Positions 9,556 through 50,160 of a DNA stretch of 64,000 nucleotides are shown piece after piece. Each line of letters starts with the position of its first letter. Positions within the stretch are counted from its first letter, which is position 1. The DNA is from a bacterium. GTDB lineage: Bacteria; Patescibacteriota; Minisyncoccia; Moranbacterales; UBA2206. Where the stretch lies: the NCBI GenBank assembly GCA_030654225.1, contig JAURXY010000034.1, positions 25,184-89,183 of the forward strand. Reading direction: 5' to 3'. A program made the position numbers and the translations under genes. The notes beneath the pieces are model-generated. The model did no database searches. It saw only the letters and a list, made by a program, of their open reading frames with translations, and was not told the DNA's origin.

Positions 9556-10638
9556 TTAGGATAGAATTTCCTTTATTTCCTCTAAACTCTCCGCCATAAC
9601 TAATTTTCGGCGCAATTCTGAGGCTCCAGGGAAACCTTTGACATACCAACTCATATGCTTTCGAATTTCAAAAAGTCCTTGTTGACCCTTGTTTTTGTGG
9701 ATTAATTTTGCATGAAGAAGCATTATTTTCTTTACCCTGTTAAGTAAATTTTGCTCTGCAAAATTATTTTTCGTAATCGAAAAATACTTAACAGGGTGAA
9801 TTTTTTTAAAATCGTATTTTGCCCCCGTAGAGACGCCCCGACGGGGCGTCTCTACACAATTCAATAATTCTTTTATCTCCTCAAAAATCCACGGCTTACC
9901 CCAAGCGCCCCGGGCAATTCCAAGACCATCCAAAAGAGGATGGTCTTGCAAAATTTTCACGCCATCCTCAGCGGAATTTATCCCACCGTTCGCCAAAACG
10001 ATTTTTTCCGGAAACATTTTTTTGATTTTTTCAACAAGATTGAAATCTAGCGAACCAGAAAACCCACCTTCATATGTTCGACCATGAATCATAATGACCG
10101 AGTAGGGAAGATCAGCTGTGCTTTTGACAAAATCAAGGGCTGAAAATCCTAAAGCCGAGCTTTGAGAATTTTTTAAAAGCTCGGCTTTAGGATTTTCAAT
10201 ACCTGCTCGAATTTTTATAGACACCGGCAATTTGGTATTTTCACAAACAGCCGAAATAATTTCACGCGCCAATTTTTTTTGCATCATTAGCGCGCAACCC
10301 GAACCATGACCAAAAACTTTTTTGGCCGGACAACCAAAATTAATGTCAATTCCATCTGGCTTCACTATTTGCGAAATAATTTTAGTGGCCTTGGCAAAAT
10401 GCGCCGGGTCTTTCCCAAAAAGTTGCACCACGTATGGCCGTTCAGCTCTATTAAATTTTACTAATTCTAAAGTTTTTTGAGGTTTAAAAAATAAAGCGCT
10501 AACGCTTGCCATTTCCGAATATACCACATCCGCTCCATATCGCCGGCAAATTTGACGAAACGCACTGTCCGTTATGCCCGCCATCGGGGCTAGAGCCAGA
10601 ATTGGTTTTTTCAATTTTAACCAAAAATTTTTATTCAC
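9556..10638 (-). CDS. dus: tRNA-dihydrouridine synthase (probable GTG start) with an in-frame palindromic insertion
   Basis: 360 aa; 'LAPMAGITDSAFRQICRRYGADVVYSEM' plus FMN-binding TIM-barrel motifs. The 29-nt perfect palindrome at 9827-9855 encodes extra residues in 'ETPRRGVSTGA'. Confidence 0.9.
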   Translation of the reverse strand: MNKNFWLKLKKPILALAPMAGITDSAFRQICRRYGADVVYSEMASVSALFFKPQKTLELVKFNRAERPYVVQLFGKDPAHFAKATKIISQIVKPDGIDINFGCPAKKVFGHGSGCALMMQKKLAREIISAVCENTKLPVSIKIRAGIENPKAELLKNSQSSALGFSALDFVKSTADLPYSVIMIHGRTYEGGFSGSLDFNLVEKIKKMFPEKIVLANGGINSAEDGVKILQDHPLLDGLGIARGAWGKPWIFEEIKELLNCVETPRRGVSTGAKYDFKKIHPVKYFSITKNNFAEQNLLNRVKKIMLLHAKLIHKNKGQQGLFEIRKHMSWYVKGFPGASELRRKLVMAESLEEIKEILS

Positions 10639-13223: not shown

Positions 13224-13294
13224 TGTCATCCTGAATTTATTTCAGGATCTTATTTTTTTATTTTAGAGATGCTGAAACGAGTTCAGCATGACAA
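13224..13294. repeat. Hairpin repeat element, family C ('tgtcatcctgaa...ttcaggatc' plus 'gatgctgaaac..gttcagcatgaca')
   Basis: Two adjacent hairpins with GTCAT/ATGAC ends. Related copies at 22246-22314, 29807-29833 and 30129-30217. Confidence 0.7.
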
Positions 13295-18775: not shown

Positions 18776-18872
18776 TGTCATCTCCGCGTAGGCGGGGATC
18801 TAGTGTATAGATTAAGTTTATTGCGATAAAAATTATTTTTATGACTGGATTCCCGTTTTCACGGGAATGACA
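18776..18872. mobile_element. MITE-like element, family A, copy 2
   Basis: tgtcatctccgcgtaggcggggatc ... ggattcccgttttcacgggaatgaca. The two copies flank def. Confidence 0.75.
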
Positions 18873-21504: not shown

Positions 21505-22236
21505 ATGAATATTTTAGGAGTAAAAGTTGATAATCTCACTAAAAAAGAAATTCTGGAAAAAATCAGAACTTTTTTGACTGAACCAAAATTTCATCAGATC
21601 GCCACTATTAATCCGGAATTTATCTTGGAAACACAGAAAAATTTAGAGTTTAAAAATATTTTGAACACTTGCGATTTGAATGTAGCTGATGGAGTTGGGA
21701 TAAAATTGGCTTTTTGGCGATTTGGAAAAAATTTGAAAACTAGACTTGCTGGCGCAGATTTGATGCTGGAAATTTTGAAAATTGCCCAGACACAAAAATT
21801 TTCAATTTTTTTAGCTGTAAATAAGAATGGTTTGAGTAATTTTGAAGAAACAAAAAAAGCTATATTGAAAATTTATCCTAAATTAGAAATTAATGGGGGA
21901 AATATAGACACAAAAACAGAAGCTAAGCTTCTGTTTGACAGAAGCTTAGCTTCTGTTTTTGGACAGATACTTTTTTGCAACTTCGGCGCCCCGCATCAAG
22001 AACTCTTCATAAATTCACAAAAATGTGATACTATAAGACTAGCCATGGGAGTTGGCGGAAGTTTCGATTTTCTTACCAAAAAAGTCCGTCGCGCTCCGCA
22101 ATTTATGCAAATTATTGGCTTAGAATGGCTCTGGCGAATATTTCAACCGCAAGAATGGAAATTCAAAAAAGAAAGACTTCGAAAAATTTTTCAAGCGGTA
22201 ATAATTTTTCCAATTAAAATAATAATCAACAAATAA
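21505..22236 (+). CDS. WecB/TagA/CpsF-family glycosyltransferase (GT26) with an in-frame palindromic insertion
   Basis: 'MNILGVKVDNLTKKEILEKI' N-terminus is typical of TagA-like enzymes. The palindrome pair at 21917-21957 encodes 'TEAKLLFDRSLASV'. Confidence 0.75.
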   Translation: MNILGVKVDNLTKKEILEKIRTFLTEPKFHQIATINPEFILETQKNLEFKNILNTCDLNVADGVGIKLAFWRFGKNLKTRLAGADLMLEILKIAQTQKFSIFLAVNKNGLSNFEETKKAILKIYPKLEINGGNIDTKTEAKLLFDRSLASVFGQILFCNFGAPHQELFINSQKCDTIRLAMGVGGSFDFLTKKVRRAPQFMQIIGLEWLWRIFQPQEWKFKKERLRKIFQAVIIFPIKIIINK

Positions 22237-22245
22237 AATTAAAAT

Positions 22246-22314
22246 TGTCATACTGAACTTGTTTCAGTATCTAAAAAATTGCAAAGCAGATCCCGAAATA
22301 AATTCGGGATGACA
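22246..22314. repeat. Hairpin repeat element, family C
   Basis: tgtcatactgaacttgtttcagtatc ... gatcccgaaataaattcgggatgacaa. Confidence 0.65.
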
Positions 22315-28013: not shown

Positions 28014-28092
28014 TGTCATTCCCGTGAAAACGGGAATCTAGTCTCAAATCACTAAGTTTCTACACTAGATTCCCGCCTACGCGGGAATGACA
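28014..28092. mobile_element. MITE-like element, family B (TIR tgtcattcccg / cgggaatgaca), copy 1
   Basis: tgtcattcccgtgaaaacgggaatctagtctcaaatcactaagtttctacactagattcccgcctacgcgggaatgaca; between iscS and iscR. Confidence 0.75.
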
Positions 28093-28096
28093 GAGG

Positions 28097-28501
28097 TTAG
28101 TTTTTTATTAAATCGCTCAATTTTATTCCATACAAAGTTTTTCTAATTTGCTCACCTAATTTTATCCACACGAAACTGGAAGCACATTTTTTCATCGCCG
28201 AGCAATGTATTCCTTGGCATTTGGCTGTCATCGGCCCTTCCATGATCTCAATAATCTCCCCCGCAGAAATTTCTTTCGGTTTTCTCGCCAAGACATACCC
28301 ACCATTTTTTCCTTTGATACTTTTGACTAATCCACTCTTTCGCAAATCACCAATCAATCTTTCCAGATATTTAGCCGAGATTTTTTCTTCTATTGATATC
28401 TCTTTTATATTCTTAATTTGAGGATAATTACGCGCCAAATTAACTATTGCTCGAAGCCCATATTCCCCTTTTGTTGATATCTTTAACATTTGTTTATTCA
28501 T
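28097..28501 (-). CDS. iscR: Rrf2-family transcriptional regulator (IscR-like)
   Basis: 134 aa; wHTH 'KGEYGLRAIVNLA' and C-terminal Cys cluster 'CQGIHCSAMKKC'. Confidence 0.85.
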   Translation of the reverse strand: MNKQMLKISTKGEYGLRAIVNLARNYPQIKNIKEISIEEKISAKYLERLIGDLRKSGLVKSIKGKNGGYVLARKPKEISAGEIIEIMEGPMTAKCQGIHCSAMKKCASSFVWIKLGEQIRKTLYGIKLSDLIKN

Positions 28502-28582
28502 ACTAATTTAGTATGCTTTAATTATAATCTTTTTGAAATAATCTGTCAACAGTGTTATAATTAAAATGTAATTGTAATTTTT

Positions 28583-28662
28583 ATGTCATCCTCGCGAATG
28601 CGGGGATCCAGTCTCAAATCATTAATTTTCTACACTAGATTCCCGCATTCGCGGGAATGACA
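28583..28662. mobile_element. MITE-like element, family B, copy 2
   Basis: tgtcatcctcgcgaatgcggggatccagtctcaaatcattaattttctacactagattcccgcattcgcgggaatgaca. The two copies flank iscR. Confidence 0.75.
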
Positions 28663-28671
28663 AAAATTTTT

Positions 28672-29796
28672 ATGCGTATATCATACAGCGCCTTTGATGC
28701 CTATCAAAATTGCCCACTGAAATATAAATTTCAAAATATTGACCACATTAAGGTGCCCAAATCCAAGGAGGCGGTTTTTGGCTCGACAATCCACGAGACA
28801 ATGAAGTTTATCCATACTCCTGGCATTCTCTCCCCTACATTAGATCAAGCCATGGAACATTTTTCCAACTCTTGGAATCCGGCAGTTTTTGACGGAGAAA
28901 TGGAGGAGCGCGCCGCTTTTTCTCAGGGCGTAAAAATTATTCAGGACTACTATCAAAAAAATAATCCCGCAGATTTTAATATCATCAATTTAGAATCACG
29001 CTTTCAAATTGAAATTGGGCCGGAAAATGATCGGCATATTATCTCCGGCATCATCGACCGCATCGACAAAACTGAAGACGGTTTTGAAATTATTGATTAT
29101 AAAACTACCAAGAAAATGCCTAACCAAGAAAAAGTTGACAACGACATTCAACTTTCCGTTTATCTCCAAGCATTTCTCTCTAATTATCCTAAAGAAATTG
29201 AAAATCTGGATAAGATAAAAGTAAGTTTGTATTTTTTAAAGCATGGCGTTAAACTTTCTGCCACAAGAACTTTGGAGCAACTGAAAAAAAGCGAGCGACT
29301 TTTTTTAGACACTATAAAAGTCATCGAGGCTGGCAATTTTGAACCGACTATGTCCCCTCTTTGCGATTGGTGCGGATACCAAAATCTTTGCCCGATGTGG
29401 AAACATAAATTCAAGGAACTGCGCCATATCGACACAGAGGAAATTAATAAATCAATCGAAGAATATATTGATCTAAAATCAGCCATCGCTATGACGAAAG
29501 ATAGGATGGCTAAACTACAAGAAGATATTCTGGGTTATATGGATCAAGAAGGCGTGGAAAGAGTTTTTGGTCCGCAAGGCGTCATTGCCAGGTCACTTCG
29601 TAAGACTTATAAATACGACGAGAAAAAACTCCGCGAAGTTTTGGAACCGCTGGATCATTGGGAAGATGTGCTAAAAGTAGATGGCATTGCACTGCGAAAT
29701 ATTCTGGGTGTCTTACCATTTGAAGCCAAAAAAGAAATTGAAAAAGCTAAAGTTCTCGACAAAGAAACTAAAAGTTTAAGCGTGAAGAAAAAATGA
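28672..29796 (+). CDS. PD-(D/E)XK nuclease (Cas4/RecB-like Fe-S nuclease domain) with an ~140-aa C-terminal extension
   Basis: N-terminal Cys 'AYQNCPLKYKF'; 'IIDRID...EIIDYKT' catalytic D/E-K; C-terminal 'CDWCGYQNLC' cysteine triad. The first ATG (28657) lies within the MITE terminus, so 28672 is preferred. Confidence 0.7.
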   Translation: MRISYSAFDAYQNCPLKYKFQNIDHIKVPKSKEAVFGSTIHETMKFIHTPGILSPTLDQAMEHFSNSWNPAVFDGEMEERAAFSQGVKIIQDYYQKNNPADFNIINLESRFQIEIGPENDRHIISGIIDRIDKTEDGFEIIDYKTTKKMPNQEKVDNDIQLSVYLQAFLSNYPKEIENLDKIKVSLYFLKHGVKLSATRTLEQLKKSERLFLDTIKVIEAGNFEPTMSPLCDWCGYQNLCPMWKHKFKELRHIDTEEINKSIEEYIDLKSAIAMTKDRMAKLQEDILGYMDQEGVERVFGPQGVIARSLRKTYKYDEKKLREVLEPLDHWEDVLKVDGIALRNILGVLPFEAKKEIEKAKVLDKETKSLSVKKK

Positions 29797-29806
29797 TAAC
29801 CTCAGT

Positions 29807-29833
29807 TGTCATCCTGAACTTGTTTCAGGATCC
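29807..29833. repeat. Hairpin repeat element, family C
   Basis: tgtcatcctgaacttgtttcaggatcc, immediately upstream of the GIY-YIG ORF. Confidence 0.65.
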
Positions 29834-29843
29834 CTATTAATCT

Positions 29844-30152
29844 ATGAAACAATATTGTGTTTACATTATTACTAATAAACTAAATAAAGTTTTTTATATT
29901 GGATTTACTGGAAATTTACCAAAAAGAATTTACGAACATAAAAATAAATTAGTAAAAGGATTTTCTGAAAAATATAATTTAACAAAATTAGTTTATTTTG
30001 AGCAAACAACGGATGTTTATTCTGCTATCTCCAGAGAAAAACAACTAAAAAATTGGCACAGGGATTGGAAAATAAACCTGATAACTAAAAGTAATCCGGG
30101 TTGGATAGATTTGTATGACACATTATTAGATGCTGAAACAAGTTCAGCATGA
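29844..30152 (+). CDS. GIY-YIG nuclease-domain protein (stand-alone, about 100 aa)
   Basis: 'VYIITN...FYIGFTGNLPKRIYEHK' GIY-YIG motif. The ORF's 3' end overlaps the downstream hairpin element. Confidence 0.75.
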   Translation: MKQYCVYIITNKLNKVFYIGFTGNLPKRIYEHKNKLVKGFSEKYNLTKLVYFEQTTDVYSAISREKQLKNWHRDWKINLITKSNPGWIDLYDTLLDAETSSA

Positions 30153-30217
30153 CAGTCTTTTTTATCTTATCATCCTGAGTTTGTCTTTTTGTCATCCTGA
30201 ATTTATTTCAGGATCTC
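30129..30217. repeat. Hairpin repeat cluster, family C
   Basis: gatgctgaaacaagttcagcatgaca ... tcatcctgagtttgtc ... tgtcatcctgaatttatttcaggatc. Confidence 0.7.
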
Positions 30218-30230
30218 TATAAAAATTCAT

Positions 30231-30680
30231 ATGCATAAACTGAAAACCTTTCTCAAAAAATTCTTTCTCATCGACGACACTCCACACAAAATTGCTGCGG
30301 GAGCATCTTTGGGAATTTTTTTAGGAATCATTCCTGGTGAAGGAGTTTTAGCAACTCTTATTTTGGCTTCGCTTTTTCGCTTCAATCGTTTGTCAGCTAC
30401 TGCTGGAGTCTTGGTTTTTAATATGTGGGCCACGGTTGCAATCCTGCCCTTTTCCGCAGGAATTGGCGCTTTTATTTTCAAAACTAATCCGCAAGAATTG
30501 ATTGATAATTTTAATTCAACTTATCATCTTGGACTAAAATATTTTTTCAGTAAAATTATTTTTCTCGAATTATTACTTCCGCTTATTGTTGGCTTCTTCA
30601 TCACCGCCGGCATCATCGCTTTAGCTTTTTATTTCTTGATTTATTTTTTGTTGAAATATAAAAAAGTGAGTTTTAGGTAA
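30231..30680 (+). CDS. DUF2062-like small membrane protein
   Basis: 149 aa; 'DDTPHKIAAGASLGIFLGIIP' followed by several TM segments. Confidence 0.5.
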   Translation: MHKLKTFLKKFFLIDDTPHKIAAGASLGIFLGIIPGEGVLATLILASLFRFNRLSATAGVLVFNMWATVAILPFSAGIGAFIFKTNPQELIDNFNSTYHLGLKYFFSKIIFLELLLPLIVGFFITAGIIALAFYFLIYFLLKYKKVSFR

Positions 30681-39359: not shown

Positions 39360-40957
39360 TTTTTTATTTGTGCTATTCCCAGCCAGAGCCAAAAAAATCC
39401 CAAAAATATTCCAGCATTAAAAAAATTGGGAACAATGATCGCAAACCAAGAAATTATTAAAAATAAACTAATAATTATTTGCGAATCATTTTGTGCTGCG
39501 TAATATTCTTTTATCGCTCTACCTAGTATATACGATAGCATAATCACAAAGGACGCAAAACCTAGAATTCCACTGCCAAGCCAAATTTCCAAAAATATAT
39601 TGGAAGAATTGAAGTTCATGCCTCGACCGTCTTCTCCTAAAATTTTCCCAATACTCCCCCAACCTATTCCTAAAATCGGGTGATTTTTTATCTCCTGCCA
39701 AGATCTTTGATAAATAAAGCTTCGAATTGAAATATTTGGATCTTTTCTAAAAATCTCCGTTACTAAATTTCCCTGATTTTTTTCTATTTCAATTTCTTCC
39801 AAGTTAATATGTCGACAACTATATTTTTCCAATTCAGAAATATTTTCAATTTCTTTTGGTAGGGAACGCAAATTTGCGTTCCCTACATTACAGGAAACGG
39901 TGATTTTCTGCATTCCTGATCCGGTTGACTGAACACGATTAAATAATTGGAAATTAGTTAGATGAAAAATATAAACCAGACCAACAGCAACAAAAAGCGC
40001 CGGGACTATAATCAGCTTTATTTTAATAGTTTCCCTCCATTGCCAATTTTTGGGATGGAATTTTAAATTTGTAAAAATAGTGAAAAGAAAAATAAATGTC
40101 ACGGCAAATGCACCGAGCCAAGCGCTTCTGCTTACAGTTAGGATAAGTAAAACATATGAAATAGTAAGTAATAAAAATAAACCGCCCAACAGAAGCTTAG
40201 CTTCGGGAGCTCCCGAAGCTAAGCTTCTGTCTGAGTCTTCGAAGTAATATATCAAAACATAAATTAAACTTATAACTAGCACTATAAAAATTCCCAACCA
40301 ATCCGCCTCCGAAAAAGTCGCATTTGGTCGTCCGGGCATCGTTTCAAAACTATTTAGCCCTCGCAAGAACCAAATATTTTGCCAAATTCCATAAAACACA
40401 ACGACCAAAGAAGAGCTAAGAAAAAATGGCACTACTTTTTTCAAGTCCTCGATATTTTGAATATAATTTCGCACTAAAAAATATAGCGCGGAAAATGTGG
40501 CCAGGATTATCGCCAATTTTAAACTTAAAATTTTATTCGACGCATTTATAATACTAAAAAGTCCGCCGATATTTATTATGACAATTAACCAATCATACCA
40601 TTCCAATTTAACTAATTTGAAATTCAGTTTTCCGGAAAGCAATCTGATTATTATGGCAGTAATTGTGAGTGCGCCGATAAATTGATATGGCCTGATTGCA
40701 ATTCCAAGCTCCAATGGCGCCAGATTGATGTTTTCTAGCGCAATCGTTCCAACAAAAAACAGAAACGCCCACCCAGGACGGTATAGCGCCAAAAACAAAG
40801 TCAGAATTGCAAAGAAAACAAAATCCCCTATTCGCAAAGGAATAATCCCTAAATTATTAAAAATAATCAAAAATAAAACTAAAGCCACATTCACCAAAAT
40901 CAACCAGCTCTTTGGTTTGTTGAGGTTATTAATTATTTTTTCAAAAAATAAATTCAT
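39356..40957 (-). CDS. O-antigen ligase/polymerase-like polytopic membrane protein (Wzy/WaaL family) with two in-frame palindromic insertions
   Basis: 533 aa with at least 10 TM helices and a large periplasmic loop. Palindromes at 39860-39887 and 40189-40238 are in-frame. Confidence 0.55.
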   Translation of the reverse strand: MNLFFEKIINNLNKPKSWLILVNVALVLFLIIFNNLGIIPLRIGDFVFFAILTLFLALYRPGWAFLFFVGTIALENINLAPLELGIAIRPYQFIGALTITAIIIRLLSGKLNFKLVKLEWYDWLIVIINIGGLFSIINASNKILSLKLAIILATFSALYFLVRNYIQNIEDLKKVVPFFLSSSLVVVFYGIWQNIWFLRGLNSFETMPGRPNATFSEADWLGIFIVLVISLIYVLIYYFEDSDRSLASGAPEAKLLLGGLFLLLTISYVLLILTVSRSAWLGAFAVTFIFLFTIFTNLKFHPKNWQWRETIKIKLIIVPALFVAVGLVYIFHLTNFQLFNRVQSTGSGMQKITVSCNVGNANLRSLPKEIENISELEKYSCRHINLEEIEIEKNQGNLVTEIFRKDPNISIRSFIYQRSWQEIKNHPILGIGWGSIGKILGEDGRGMNFNSSNIFLEIWLGSGILGFASFVIMLSYILGRAIKEYYAAQNDSQIIISLFLIISWFAIIVPNFFNAGIFLGFFWLWLGIAQIKK

Positions 40958-44636: not shown

Positions 44637-46595
44637 ATGTTAAATTTTATTTACAGTCAAATTTTATTTTATATATCTATTTTAGTAATTCTGTTTGTCC
44701 CAGGATATTTTTTGCTTTTGGCGGTTTTTGGTAAATATGAAAATCAGATAAGTAAATTAGAAAGATTTATTTTTTCTTTTGGATTAAGTTTAATCGTTGT
44801 TGATTTTATCGCTTTTGCTTATTCCAAACTAAACGTTCCGATTACTGCCCTCTCTTCAATTTTGGGGGTACTGTTTTTTGCCATAATTTGCCTTGCATTT
44901 AGACACTGGGTGTCTAAAAAGACACCCAGTGTCTCTGTAGGCATTCAAGAAGAAGATAAATTATTTTCTTTTTCCAAAAATCAATTTCTCCTCCTTTTGC
45001 TTCTTTTGTTTTTGACAATTTTTATTAAAACTGCCTATCTCAGTGGAACAGTTGCCCCAACTGCCACTGACATGGGTCATCACACCTATTGGGCTAAAGA
45101 AATGTCCACCACTCACAAACTTCCTGTTTATGAAGGAATGCCTGATTTTATCATTGGTGAACATATTGCTTTGTCAGAGATAAATATGATCAGTGGAAAA
45201 AGTTTCTTTTCAGCTTTCCCGGTTATTTTTTTGCTACTGATTAATCTTCTTAGTATCCTCACTGTTTTTATCTTGACTTTACGAATTTTCAAAAACAAGA
45301 ATGTTGCTATTCTTTCAATTCTTTTTTTGGGAGTTCTTTTTGCTGTTTCCTCACCTCAGGCTAAATTTGTTAGTGGTGGTGTAATAGGAAATATCTTGGG
45401 AAATCTTCTGATGCCTATGGCCTTTTATTTTTATTTCAGAGCTACAGAATTTCTAAATGTAGGGGTTCAATTTATTGAACCCACTAATAAACCGATTGGG
45501 TTTGATAAATCAAACCCCTACATTTTAAATGATAGTCAGAAATTTCTTTCCCTTGGAATTTTTTCCACTTTCGGACTTTTTTATACGCATCATCTCACTG
45601 CTTTTATATTTTTATTTATTTTTTCCTTACTTATTATTATTTTCCTAGCTCTAAATTACAAAGACCTGAAAAATATTTTTGGAAAAATATTTGATTTGGT
45701 TTTTTCCGTTCCTGTTATCACAACTTTTGCAGTCGGATTGATTTTTTTCTTTTTTATTTTCACTCCAAATTATATGCAGACTAGTGCGGTAGAAACCGCT
45801 GTCGGCACACCCTCAAAAGCCACTCGCGAAGGATTGAGTATGGACAACATAAAATCTTCCGTGGGCGAAGTTCGTCTGGCTCTTGGATTTTTAGGACTTC
45901 TGATTTTATCTTTGAATTATAAAAGAAAAAATTTCGGCTTCACTTTGATTTCTGCTTGGACAGTTATGCTTTTTATCATGTCCACTAAACCAGAATTAAT
46001 TTTCATCAACTTGCCTAGTTCTCGAATTGGAAATTATATGAGCTATCCCCTTGCCATCCTTTCTGCCTATGGATTATTTTCTATTTTCAATCCCAGTTTA
46101 GTTGATTCAAAAAAAATAATTCCCAAGAAATTTCTAGCTGGCTCATTTTTGATTATCCTAATTTTTGTTTTAACTAGCGGGATAAGCGACAGCGTTCAAG
46201 CTTTCAAAAAAGCCCCTGACTTCACTCCCGTTATTGAAACTTATGACGCTTCTAATTATTTAGTGAAAAATACTAACGAGGAAGATGTGATTCTAAAAGA
46301 TCATAATTATATCACTGCAGATTCTTGGATAAAATTGTTTTTTATGCAAGGTTATAGATACCCTCAGTCTCGTGGCTATTTCAAGCGTTATGAAGATCCC
46401 ACTAAACCTCGTGAAATGTGCACCCTCTATATGATTTCCAATCCGGCCGGTCAAGACGCCCAGGATTGTTTTTTTGAAACAAAAACTAATTATATTTTGG
46501 TTAATCCAAAATTTGATAGCTCCCAATTTGTAAAACTCAAAAATTTTAGCAAAGTTTATAACAATGGCGATGTAGCTGTTTATTATAAAAAATAA
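44637..46595 (+). CDS. Large polytopic membrane protein, possibly a third GT-C-type glycosyltransferase
   Basis: 652 aa; about 12 TM helices then a soluble C-terminal domain. Conserved-looking loop 'TATDMGHHTYWAKEM'. Confidence 0.45.
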   Translation: MLNFIYSQILFYISILVILFVPGYFLLLAVFGKYENQISKLERFIFSFGLSLIVVDFIAFAYSKLNVPITALSSILGVLFFAIICLAFRHWVSKKTPSVSVGIQEEDKLFSFSKNQFLLLLLLLFLTIFIKTAYLSGTVAPTATDMGHHTYWAKEMSTTHKLPVYEGMPDFIIGEHIALSEINMISGKSFFSAFPVIFLLLINLLSILTVFILTLRIFKNKNVAILSILFLGVLFAVSSPQAKFVSGGVIGNILGNLLMPMAFYFYFRATEFLNVGVQFIEPTNKPIGFDKSNPYILNDSQKFLSLGIFSTFGLFYTHHLTAFIFLFIFSLLIIIFLALNYKDLKNIFGKIFDLVFSVPVITTFAVGLIFFFFIFTPNYMQTSAVETAVGTPSKATREGLSMDNIKSSVGEVRLALGFLGLLILSLNYKRKNFGFTLISAWTVMLFIMSTKPELIFINLPSSRIGNYMSYPLAILSAYGLFSIFNPSLVDSKKIIPKKFLAGSFLIILIFVLTSGISDSVQAFKKAPDFTPVIETYDASNYLVKNTNEEDVILKDHNYITADSWIKLFFMQGYRYPQSRGYFKRYEDPTKPREMCTLYMISNPAGQDAQDCFFETKTNYILVNPKFDSSQFVKLKNFSKVYNNGDVAVYYKK

Positions 46596-49575: not shown

Positions 49576-50160
49576 ATGAAACTAATCACAATTTCTGGTC
49601 TTGATGGCTCAGGGAAATCAACTCAAATTGAAATGCTAAAAAAGCATTTAGAATCGCAAAGTAAGCGGGTTTTTTATTTTCATGCTGGGCAATTTAGTAT
49701 TAGTAAGATTTATAATATTTTAAGACCACACAAGATTATTACTGGCAAACATCATGAAAGCGTGGTCAAAGCTAATGTTTTTCAAATTTATCTTCGTCGT
49801 TTTGCATTACTGATAGATTTGGTGCGCTTTAAGTTATTACATAATAAATTACGTAATAAAAATTATGATTATATTTTGAGTGACCGGTATTTTTATGATA
49901 GTGTGGTTAATATTGAATTTTTATGTAGGGAACGCATATATGCGTTCCCTACGTGGATTGTAAATCCCGATTTGGCAATCTATCTTCAAACTGATCCGGA
50001 AATAATAATGCAAAGAGAAAGAAAGCCTGATCAAGGAATTGATTATCTCAAAAAGAAAAAAAATATATATGACGCAAAAATTCTCGATTGGAATATGAAA
50101 CTAATTAATGGCAATCGAGGCCAAGAAGAAATTTTTAAAGAAATAAAATCATTTTTATGA
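49576..50160 (+). CDS. tmk: Thymidylate kinase-like P-loop kinase with an in-frame palindromic insertion
   Basis: 194 aa; 'ISGLDGSGKSTQ' P-loop and 'LSDRYFYDS' DRY motif. The palindrome at 49925-49952 encodes 'RERIYAFP'. Confidence 0.6.
   Translation: MKLITISGLDGSGKSTQIEMLKKHLESQSKRVFYFHAGQFSISKIYNILRPHKIITGKHHESVVKANVFQIYLRRFALLIDLVRFKLLHNKLRNKNYDYILSDRYFYDSVVNIEFLCRERIYAFPTWIVNPDLAIYLQTDPEIIMQRERKPDQGIDYLKKKKNIYDAKILDWNMKLINGNRGQEEIFKEIKSFL

Follow-up and report, generated by a model that had tools for sequence, protein, structure and literature searches.

The nuclease gene

The stretch of DNA analysed here, called the window below, is 64 kb long (contig JAURXY010000034.1 of assembly GCA_030654225.1, positions 25,184 to 89,183), has a G+C content of 34.7% and finds its nearest public relatives among Candidatus Moranbacteria (Patescibacteria) assemblies from groundwater metagenomes. 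At 29844-30152, on the plus strand between a gene for a PD-(D/E)XK nuclease (PDDEXK below) and a DUF2062 gene, lies the single ssn gene of the window. It encodes a GIY-YIG nuclease of 102 amino acids that we place in the recently described Ssn family, and it is enclosed by inverted copies of a short hairpin repeat. We suggest that gene and hairpins together form a cassette that has spread between sites and between genomes.

The preliminary description, made from the letters of the sequence, had recognised a stand-alone GIY-YIG open reading frame (ORF) of about 100 amino acids, and the Pfam GIY-YIG domain (PF01541, residues 3-78, E=6e-17) was indeed the sole domain found. Its account of the structure and of a cassette was sound; what it did not recognise is that the element had already been described. 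Ssn proteins, among them SsnA of Neisseria meningitidis, are single-domain GIY-YIG proteins of about 94 amino acids (CDD cd10448, GIY-YIG_unchar_3), whose genes typically have hairpins called SRMs (Ssn-related motifs) on both sides, as in the NTS-ssnA-NTS layout of Neisseria (Chenal et al., Nat Commun 2025, PMC11893778). BLASTP aligned the window protein with the N. gonorrhoeae SsnA orthologue (L169:1498-1782, 94 amino acids) at 46% identity over 89 residues, gap-free, with an E-value of 6e-31, far below the 1e-10 under which Chenal et al. accept homology, and tblastn matched an N. gonorrhoeae chromosome record at E=7e-21. Y7, Y18 and E65 of the window protein align with Y6, Y17 and E64, the catalytic Tyr/Tyr/Glu of SsnA that Chenal et al. 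mutated; the gonococcal orthologue has all three residues, and NTS copies directly follow its gene. Because of this gap-free identity, the aligned catalytic residues and the hairpin-gene-hairpin layout, we assign the window protein to the Ssn family; as that family has been in print since 2025, the element is not of a new kind. A 96% identical protein occurs in Moranbacteria bacterium RIFOXYA12_FULL_35_19. The gonococcal orthologue came from PLSDB, where NZ_CP119140.1 and NZ_CP119142.1 (2.17-Mb "plasmids") are evidently mislabelled whole chromosomes of Neisseria gonorrhoeae.

An AlphaFold model of the protein (predicted local distance difference test, pLDDT, 73) has the beta-beta-alpha...beta-alpha topology of GIY-YIG domains. 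Its best PDB matches in Foldseek were the UPF0213 protein BH0048 (1zg2, E=1.5e-3), Slx1 and the N-terminal domain of UvrC (PDB entries 1zg2, 7cq2 and 1yd6), which share its fold and are of similar size, but there was no significant sequence match to these families: phmmer against PDB sequences returned no GIY-YIG chain at E<=0.01 and no Ssn structure, the one match being a spurious one to NuoH.

The preliminary description called the gene homing-endonuclease-like, and in a loose sense it is, for it shares with enzymes of the I-TevI/SegA type the GIY-YIG core and a homing-like pattern of presence and absence among close relatives. Its first 35 or so residues also weakly resemble group I intron endonucleases (TIGR01453, E=1.8e-5) and the PADLOC "HEase" model (E=0.003). 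However, the TIGR01453 match takes in residues 6-39 only and scores 24.9 bits against a cutoff of 56, the 94-residue catalytic domain stands by itself with no DNA-binding module, and there is neither an intron nor a phage context; among the 50,697 records of a phage collection none matched. The cassette occupies several unrelated sites instead of one cognate homing site, and the characterised homologue SsnA neither binds nor cuts double-stranded DNA, the Ssn family having been shown to cut single-stranded DNA alone, next to its hairpin (PMC11893778). A classical homing endonuclease is rejected on the sub-cutoff score, the missing DNA-binding module and the multiple sites, and we regard it as very improbable that a free-standing I-TevI-type enzyme breaks both strands of a cassette-less allele and is then copied in by repair.

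The hairpins and their class

The left SRM (TGTCATCCTGAACTTGTTTCAGGATC, 29807-29832, plus strand) ends 11 nt 5' of the ssn start codon. The right SRM (30129-30154) is the inverted partner of the left one (GATGCTGAAACAAGTTCAGCATGACA) and reads TGTCATGCTGAACTTGTTTCAGCATC on the minus strand. Both are of a CTGAA type, "family C", with the consensus TGTCATCCTGAAyttrtTTCAGGATC, and the left and right arms are 92% complementary. The ssn core comprises 94 amino acids (29844-30125) and is followed by an eight-codon tail, LDAETSSA, that reads into the right hairpin; the repeat encodes the final seven codons (DAETSSA), and the stop codon (TGA, 30150-30152) falls within CAGCATGACA, as the TGA of ATGACA. 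The hairpin upstream of the gene and the last codons and stop inside a second one had been seen correctly at the outset. In the model the repeat-encoded tail (residues 96-102, pLDDT <50) is disordered; many homologues end at 94 amino acids, and others share the DAETSSA tail. Homologues often have such ORF extensions derived from repeats (VILNLFQD, DAETSSA), by which annotation would be misled. Two more hairpins had been reported after the gene: the one at 30190-30216 (TGTCATCCTGAATTTATTTCAGGATCT, plus strand, 14 nt 5' of the DUF2062 start codon) is complete, but that at 30167-30185 (TTATCATCCTGAGTTTGTC, plus strand) is a truncated 5' half-copy.

The pattern GTCATCCTGAAYNNNTTTCAGGAT, allowing up to 3 mismatches, matched the window seven times (13225+, 13269-, 22247+, 22290-, 29808+, 30130- and 30191+) and matched none of 100 dinucleotide shuffles. 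As single-stranded DNA each copy folds into an 8-bp stem with a 5-nt loop (-6.1 to -6.7 kcal/mol, z -2.7 to -4.1). The hairpins lack a T-run and hence are not intrinsic terminators, and in a search of the whole window with Rfam at gathering thresholds the only match was one transfer RNA, which leaves the hairpins outside every curated RNA family.

The published degenerate SRM motif, HGTCWYN(0-2)YYVSBRHN(0-5)WNVSBRGN(0-2)RNCYNB, is a search heuristic and not a definition of the protein family. It fits none of the seven CTGAA-type copies in the window but does fit six copies of canonical Neisseria (NTS) type, where 200 Markov simulations averaged 0.055. The CTGAA-type hairpin nevertheless retains the GTC 5' of the palindrome and the C 3' of it, which in SsnA are critical for cutting and for binding, respectively (PMC11893778). 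Both features persist across the 233-241 elements gathered from all fetched loci, and the base 3' of the palindrome was C in 239 of 241. With three stem positions left free on each side, these positions were perfectly complementary in 228 of the 241, spread over 8 triplets, whereas with shuffled partners the count averaged 65 and never exceeded 86; since the observed count so exceeds that maximum, the hairpin itself is under selection. We presume that the CTGAA-type hairpin is the cognate repeat of the Ssn that it flanks, and GTCAT-NCTGAA-loop-TTCAGN-ATC, a widespread hairpin class that escapes the published motif, probably marks a distinct enzyme specificity. Bases 1 and 4 of the loop (positions 11 and 14 after the G of GTCAT) also covary in CTGAA-type hairpins: CTTG(T/A) or CTCG occurs about 170 times, TTTA or TTCA about 55 times, and mixed forms are nearly absent. 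This hints at an additional C:G or T:A pair that closes a 2-nt loop with one base extruded, or at a dinucleotide read by the protein.

Tagged hairpins in inverted pairs also recall repetitive extragenic palindromes (REPs) and their doublets (REPINs), and the hairpins might have been mobilised by a RAYT, a Y1 HUH transposase, encoded elsewhere, with the GIY-YIG gene as a passenger. The doublet architecture is REPIN-like, and palindromes with the classical GTAG tag are present in the window as well. The tag of the hairpins around ssn is GTCAT, however, and not GTAG or CGTC; the gene that such hairpins flank across many phyla encodes a GIY-YIG protein; and published SsnA binds exactly this class of hairpin (PMC11893778). 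We consider mobilisation by a RAYT very improbable, though no search of the window aimed at a RAYT was made.

Gene and hairpin in other phyla

A scan of species-representative genomes yielded 80 loci with proteins 50-75% identical to the window Ssn, in Patescibacteria, Nitrospirota, Bacteroidota, Proteobacteria, Campylobacterota, Spirochaetes, Melainabacteria and others; 77 of the loci could be assessed. GTCAY-tagged hairpins lay within 200 nt of the gene in 69 of the 77. A plus-strand copy was found upstream in 52, the median distance from its end to the ATG being 34 nt, and a minus-strand copy at or after the stop codon in 53; both flanks carried hairpins in the orientation seen in the window at 39 loci, and at 26 the stop codon fell in the same hairpin register. 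CTGAA-type stems prevail around the subclade of the window protein, and canonical NTS hairpins accompany the 57-61% identical proteins at L068 and L077. The association of gene and hairpin is therefore general.

The cassette at other sites

A near-copy of the gene (P0001), with a 98% identical product, lies between genes for TGT and peptidase U32 on a 67-kb contig of a related Moranbacterium genome (L170). By blastn, L170:9963-10335 and 29806-30178 of the window are 94.9% identical over 373 nt; on its left the homology is bounded by the outer edge of the left hairpin, and on its right it stops, at 30178, inside the half-copy that follows the right hairpin. Otherwise the 16.8 kb of L170 and the 64 kb of the window share just three repeat-to-repeat matches of 41-65 nt. 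Further relatives lie at the same TGT site (93% identical) and after a TatD gene (76% identical). In GCA_001784915.1 the TGT-U32 spacer is without the cassette (L181) and the PDDEXK site is filled (L002).

The gene is neither syntenic nor ubiquitous among relatives. We compared 80 orthologous PDDEXK loci from metagenomes, 68 of which had downstream spacers that could be assessed with a hairpin scan. A GIY-YIG gene was present at only three (L091, L094 and L153), and very close relatives were among the 77 that lacked it. By the scan, 61 of the 68 spacers were free of SRMs, one of these being that of L094, which has a long-loop variant that the scan missed. The closer loci display several states of the site. 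In L090, whose PDDEXK is 96% identical, the spacer is 78 nt long and free of hairpins; L092 (93%) has one variant hairpin, which shares the left junction AACCTCAGTTGTCATCCTGA; L093 (93%) has the half-copy and the third hairpin only, the latter standing alone at the orthologous site but for that fragment; and L094 (87%) carries in the same spacer an Ssn paralogue of 48% identity flanked by a different hairpin, GTCATTGCGAG...CTCGCAATGAC. NTS-type hairpin pairs occupy this spacer at five other loci. The PDDEXK-DUF2062 spacers of the more distant relatives L144, L150, L151 and L159 hold plus and minus NTS-type copies 160-165 nt apart with AT-rich DNA and no ORF between them, and could represent a decayed or internally deleted Ssn cassette.

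These comparisons also dispose of a housekeeping protein of the YhbQ/UPF0213 kind that happens to lie amid unrelated repeats. UPF0213 BH0048 is the best structural match of our model, but there is no detectable sequence match to it, the gene is not syntenic, and the hairpins track the gene across phyla in fixed position and orientation. To our knowledge no association with repeats has been noted for the UPF0213, Slx1 or UvrC families. A YhbQ-like gene is ruled out by the synteny analysis, and we give it next to no credence.

Compared with the syntenic relative L001, positions 29700-30299 are 91-95% identical, on a background of about 80-87%, or mostly 75-88% when taken over 12 kb. Synonymous differences affect 14 of 103 codons in ssn and 115 of 375 in the PDDEXK gene (chi-square about 12). 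These figures fit a cassette younger than its flanks. The DUF2062 gene (30300-30680) is only 61-65% identical in DNA to that of the otherwise close L001, far under the local background, which reflects either fast evolution or replacement by recombination at the cassette boundary.

Gene-less hairpins come and go as well. The doublet at 22246 is absent or decayed in the orthologous spacer of L174, a close relative with a 96% identical ssn product, and the doublet in the PDDEXK leader is of NTS type in the window but of CTGAA type in L093, and L109 and L115 have none there. In a syntenic relative there is an additional 39-nt hairpin unit with the flank AACCTCAG duplicated. Within the third hairpin of L001 and L174, at the equivalent of window position 30205, a 22-nt GC-rich insertion (CTGTGCCTCGCCGGCAGGCGGG) lies exactly in the loop, which suggests that a further, very small palindromic element has hairpin loops as its targets; the U32 genes of L170 and L181 begin with a similar string, GCCGGCGGGCTTGCCTCGCC, which is apparently coding there.

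Since the same block occurs at different loci, sites are empty in relatives, and the block is conserved above its flanks, the cassette, at about 29806-30178 and possibly extending to 30216 (about 370-410 bp), behaves in these alignments as an insertion-polymorphic, horizontally spreading unit in Moranbacteria. The early suggestion of a mini mobile cassette with hairpin ends is thus upheld by a block of about 95% identity at a different locus and by empty sites in close relatives.

How the cassette moves is a separate matter. It may be a domesticated host system whose gene and doublets relocate passively, by homologous or illegitimate recombination among repeats and imported DNA. Modulation of transformation is the sole biology demonstrated for the family (PMC11893778), and the messy junctions, with truncated half-copies and tandem 39-nt duplications, agree with this. 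So do the want of a visible target-site duplication and a conserved tract that reaches into the 3' end of the PDDEXK gene, as expected for import by homologous recombination; GIY-YIG enzymes are moreover without known transposase chemistry. Set against this are a 373-bp block bounded by hairpin edges in unrelated contexts, the receipt of different Ssn/hairpin pairs by the same spacer, and homologues of 50-75% identity in many phyla. This pattern is easier to reconcile with a selfish unit than with a host gene, although passive movement is still compatible with it. We view a host system as a serious alternative that nonetheless falls short of being the likelier account.

Neighbouring genes

The preliminary description had further suggested that the PD-(D/E)XK and GIY-YIG proteins could be a pair, either a mobile element module or two genes that serve defence or repair. 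The two genes are neighbours on one strand, the interval between them contains no promoter-like or terminator-like site, and PDDEXK shows weak Cas4-like profile matches. However, at the 80 Ssn loci from other genomes there was not one PDDEXK, DUF2062 or Rrf2 homologue beside ssn, 77 of the 80 PDDEXK orthologues lack a GIY-YIG neighbour, and the near-identical copy of the cassette adjoins the TGT and peptidase U32 genes instead. Compared with the PADLOC models, the GIY-YIG protein had no significant match to a defence family. The comparative data rule out such a module, which strikes us as scarcely credible. Because of these same counts the adjacency is incidental: the cassette landed in the spacer between ordinary genes of the lineage, PD-(D/E)XK/DUF7376 and DUF2062. 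The latter lies directly 3' of PDDEXK in about 40 of the 80 orthologous loci, with a gap of 3-290 nt.

The PD-(D/E)XK protein contains PDDEXK_1 and DUF7376 (Pfam E=3.6e-7; score 30.6 bits, cutoff 27), and its translation shows a Cys-X2-Cys-X5-Cys motif and an N-terminal Cys. Its C-terminal extension of about 140 amino acids had been thought unusual, but it matches DUF7376, and the best 120 of 2,508 homologues returned, 77-97% identical, cover 96-100% of the query. The best public homologue is 97% identical, and 374 amino acids is the commonest length among the matches listed. The true start is probably 28672, since an NTS-type hairpin (GGGAATGACA) contains the first ATG (28657) and 374 amino acids is the length of most orthologues listed. 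The structure model has a mean pLDDT of 59, mostly below 60 in the C-terminal region, and was built on a shallow alignment whose members are all at least 78% identical. The protein is a conserved "RecB family exonuclease" of the lineage and not a partner of Ssn.

Other repeats in the window

The preliminary description had placed the same hairpin element at 13224-13294 and 22246-22314, rightly so: each is a convergent CTGAA-type doublet of about 70 nt, with some 18 nt between its plus and minus copies, that carries the ends of the cassette minus the gene. The doublet at 13224-13294, a plus copy, an 18-nt spacer and a minus copy in a divergent intergenic spacer, is REPIN- or MITE-like (miniature inverted-repeat transposable element) and can fold as two hairpins or as a single long one (-14.5 kcal/mol, z=-4.7). 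That at 22246-22314, found by the pattern scan, has stems that vary in a compensatory way (ACTGAA/TTCAGT and CCCGAA/TTCGGG).

A second repeat class, TGTCATTCCCGYGNNNRCGGGAATCYAG, accounts for the six NTS-type copies, in three doublets. The convergent doublet at 18776-18872 consists of canonical Neisseria-type SRMs that fit the published motif; another, from the repeat scan, lies in the spacer between the cysteine desulfurase and Rrf2 genes (28014-28092); and the third (28584-28662; -25 kcal/mol, z=-8.2) lies in the 5' leader of the PD-(D/E)XK gene, where it supplies the spurious upstream ATG at 28657. SRMs therefore stand in four successive intergenic spacers (IscS-Rrf2, Rrf2-PDDEXK, PDDEXK-ssn and ssn-DUF2062) within 2.2 kb, from 28014 to 30216, a local concentration reminiscent of the NTS clusters described near particular genes in Neisseria. 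Given the single ssn of the window, an enzyme for the NTS-type copies, if any, would be encoded outside the 64 kb.

Palindromes with GTAG...CTAC tags, namely gtAGAGACGCCCCGACGGGGCGTCTCtac, gtAGGGAACGCaaatttGCGTTCCCTac (two copies that differ in their loops) and an GGGTTCAA/GGGTTTGA doublet, are located at 9828-9854, 39859-39886, 49925-49952 and 45459-45521. In this they are like the REPs with a GTAG tag described by Di Nocera et al. 2013 (PMC3733652), for which a link to RAYT transposases is usual. Palindromes of the AGAAGCTTAGCTTCT type at 21915-21956 and 40198-40221, partly nested or in tandem, apparently form a further small repeat family.

Discussion

We put at about 85% the probability that the locus is an SRM-ssn-SRM cassette, that is, a 94-amino-acid Ssn GIY-YIG nuclease between inverted hairpins that are presumably its cognates, which is insertion-polymorphic and has landed between two genes of the lineage. 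Neisseria SsnA binds the NTS hairpin (CGTCATTCCCGCGMAVGCGGGAATCYRG) only as single-stranded DNA and cuts a few nucleotides upstream of it (PMC11893778). By analogy, the window Ssn would bind its hairpin only in single-stranded DNA, reading the sequence of the palindrome together with the GTC that immediately precedes it and the C that immediately follows, and would cleave a few nucleotides 5' of the hairpin on the GTCAT strand. Because the flanking copies are inverted, the predicted cuts would fall just outside the cassette, on both strands. New sites might then be reached by either of two routes: repair triggered by Ssn that copies the cassette into hairpin-marked sites, with the 26-nt repeats as homology, or passive recombination.

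Several points weigh against this interpretation. L170 may come from another place in a closely related genome and not from a different organism. The conservation of the cassette block may in part reflect constraint instead of recent transfer, and the 3' end of the PDDEXK gene is also 91-92% identical. Neither a target-site duplication nor a clean excision footprint could be defined from the pairs of filled and empty sites, whose spacers are too diverged or hold repeat remnants, so that self-mobilisation is unproven and movement may have been passive; and we know of no GIY-YIG nuclease that catalyses strand transfer or joins DNA. The CTGAA-type hairpin lies outside the published SRM motif, and an altered palindrome abolishes the activity of the Neisseria enzyme (PMC11893778); taken together, these two facts mean that a different specificity must be assumed. 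Finally, the specificity for single-stranded DNA, the position of the cut and the recognition of the CTGAA-type hairpin are all extrapolated across 46% identity to the enzyme that has been studied.

An IS-like (insertion sequence-like) architecture of ssn units has been put forward only as a hypothesis (PMC11893778). A bolder version of it would make SRM-ssn-SRM cassettes autonomous mobile elements of a new mechanistic class, with the 70-nt doublets as non-autonomous derivatives. Ssn would nick each strand just outside the inverted hairpins whenever these become single-stranded, at replication forks or in incoming DNA, and repair or template switching would copy the cassette into other hairpin-marked sites, a "homing into its own repeats" and a GIY-YIG analogue of RAYT/REPIN. 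Several observations would fit: the ends are identical although the contexts differ, filled and empty sites are reciprocal, one spacer has received different Ssn/hairpin pairs, and cassettes are younger than their flanks. We offer this autonomous mechanism tentatively and would ourselves bet against it; the comparative data go beyond the published mobility hypothesis, and Ssn as the mobilising enzyme may be no more than a proposal for now.

With the published Ssn systems the locus shares the inverted flanking repeats, with their 5' GTCAT tag and 3' C, which are intergenic and clustered and are accompanied in the window by NTS-type copies; the flanking repeats are also dispersed, five further family-C copies being present in the 64 kb where 0 are expected. 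What distinguishes the locus is a Patescibacteria (Moranbacteria) host, the terms Patescibacteria, Candidatus and candidate phyla being absent from the main text of PMC11893778; a palindrome (ATCCTGAA/TTCAGGAT) with a 5-nt loop that lies beyond the published motif; an ORF that reads into the right repeat; and comparative evidence for cassette mobility, where the earlier study had a hypothesis. The REP/REPIN-RAYT and IS200/IS605 "peel and paste" systems likewise use short tagged palindromes recognised as single-stranded hairpins, inverted doublets able to form one long hairpin, and one repeat-flanked gene with hundreds of gene-less copies. Unlike a RAYT, however, the window enzyme is of the GIY-YIG and not the Y1 HUH type, and no covalent 5'-phosphotyrosine chemistry would be expected of it.

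Ssn nucleases entered the literature as a family only in 2025. Our results indicate that the family and its repeats reach into the small genomes of candidate-phyla bacteria. Annotation of such genomes is affected, for the repeats extend or create ORFs, as both the ssn tail DAETSSA and the false start codon (ATG) of PDDEXK illustrate. A CTGAA-type specificity would matter for the proposed use of Ssn enzymes as programmable cutters of single-stranded DNA. The evidence for mobility bears on whether Ssn units are selfish elements or host tools.

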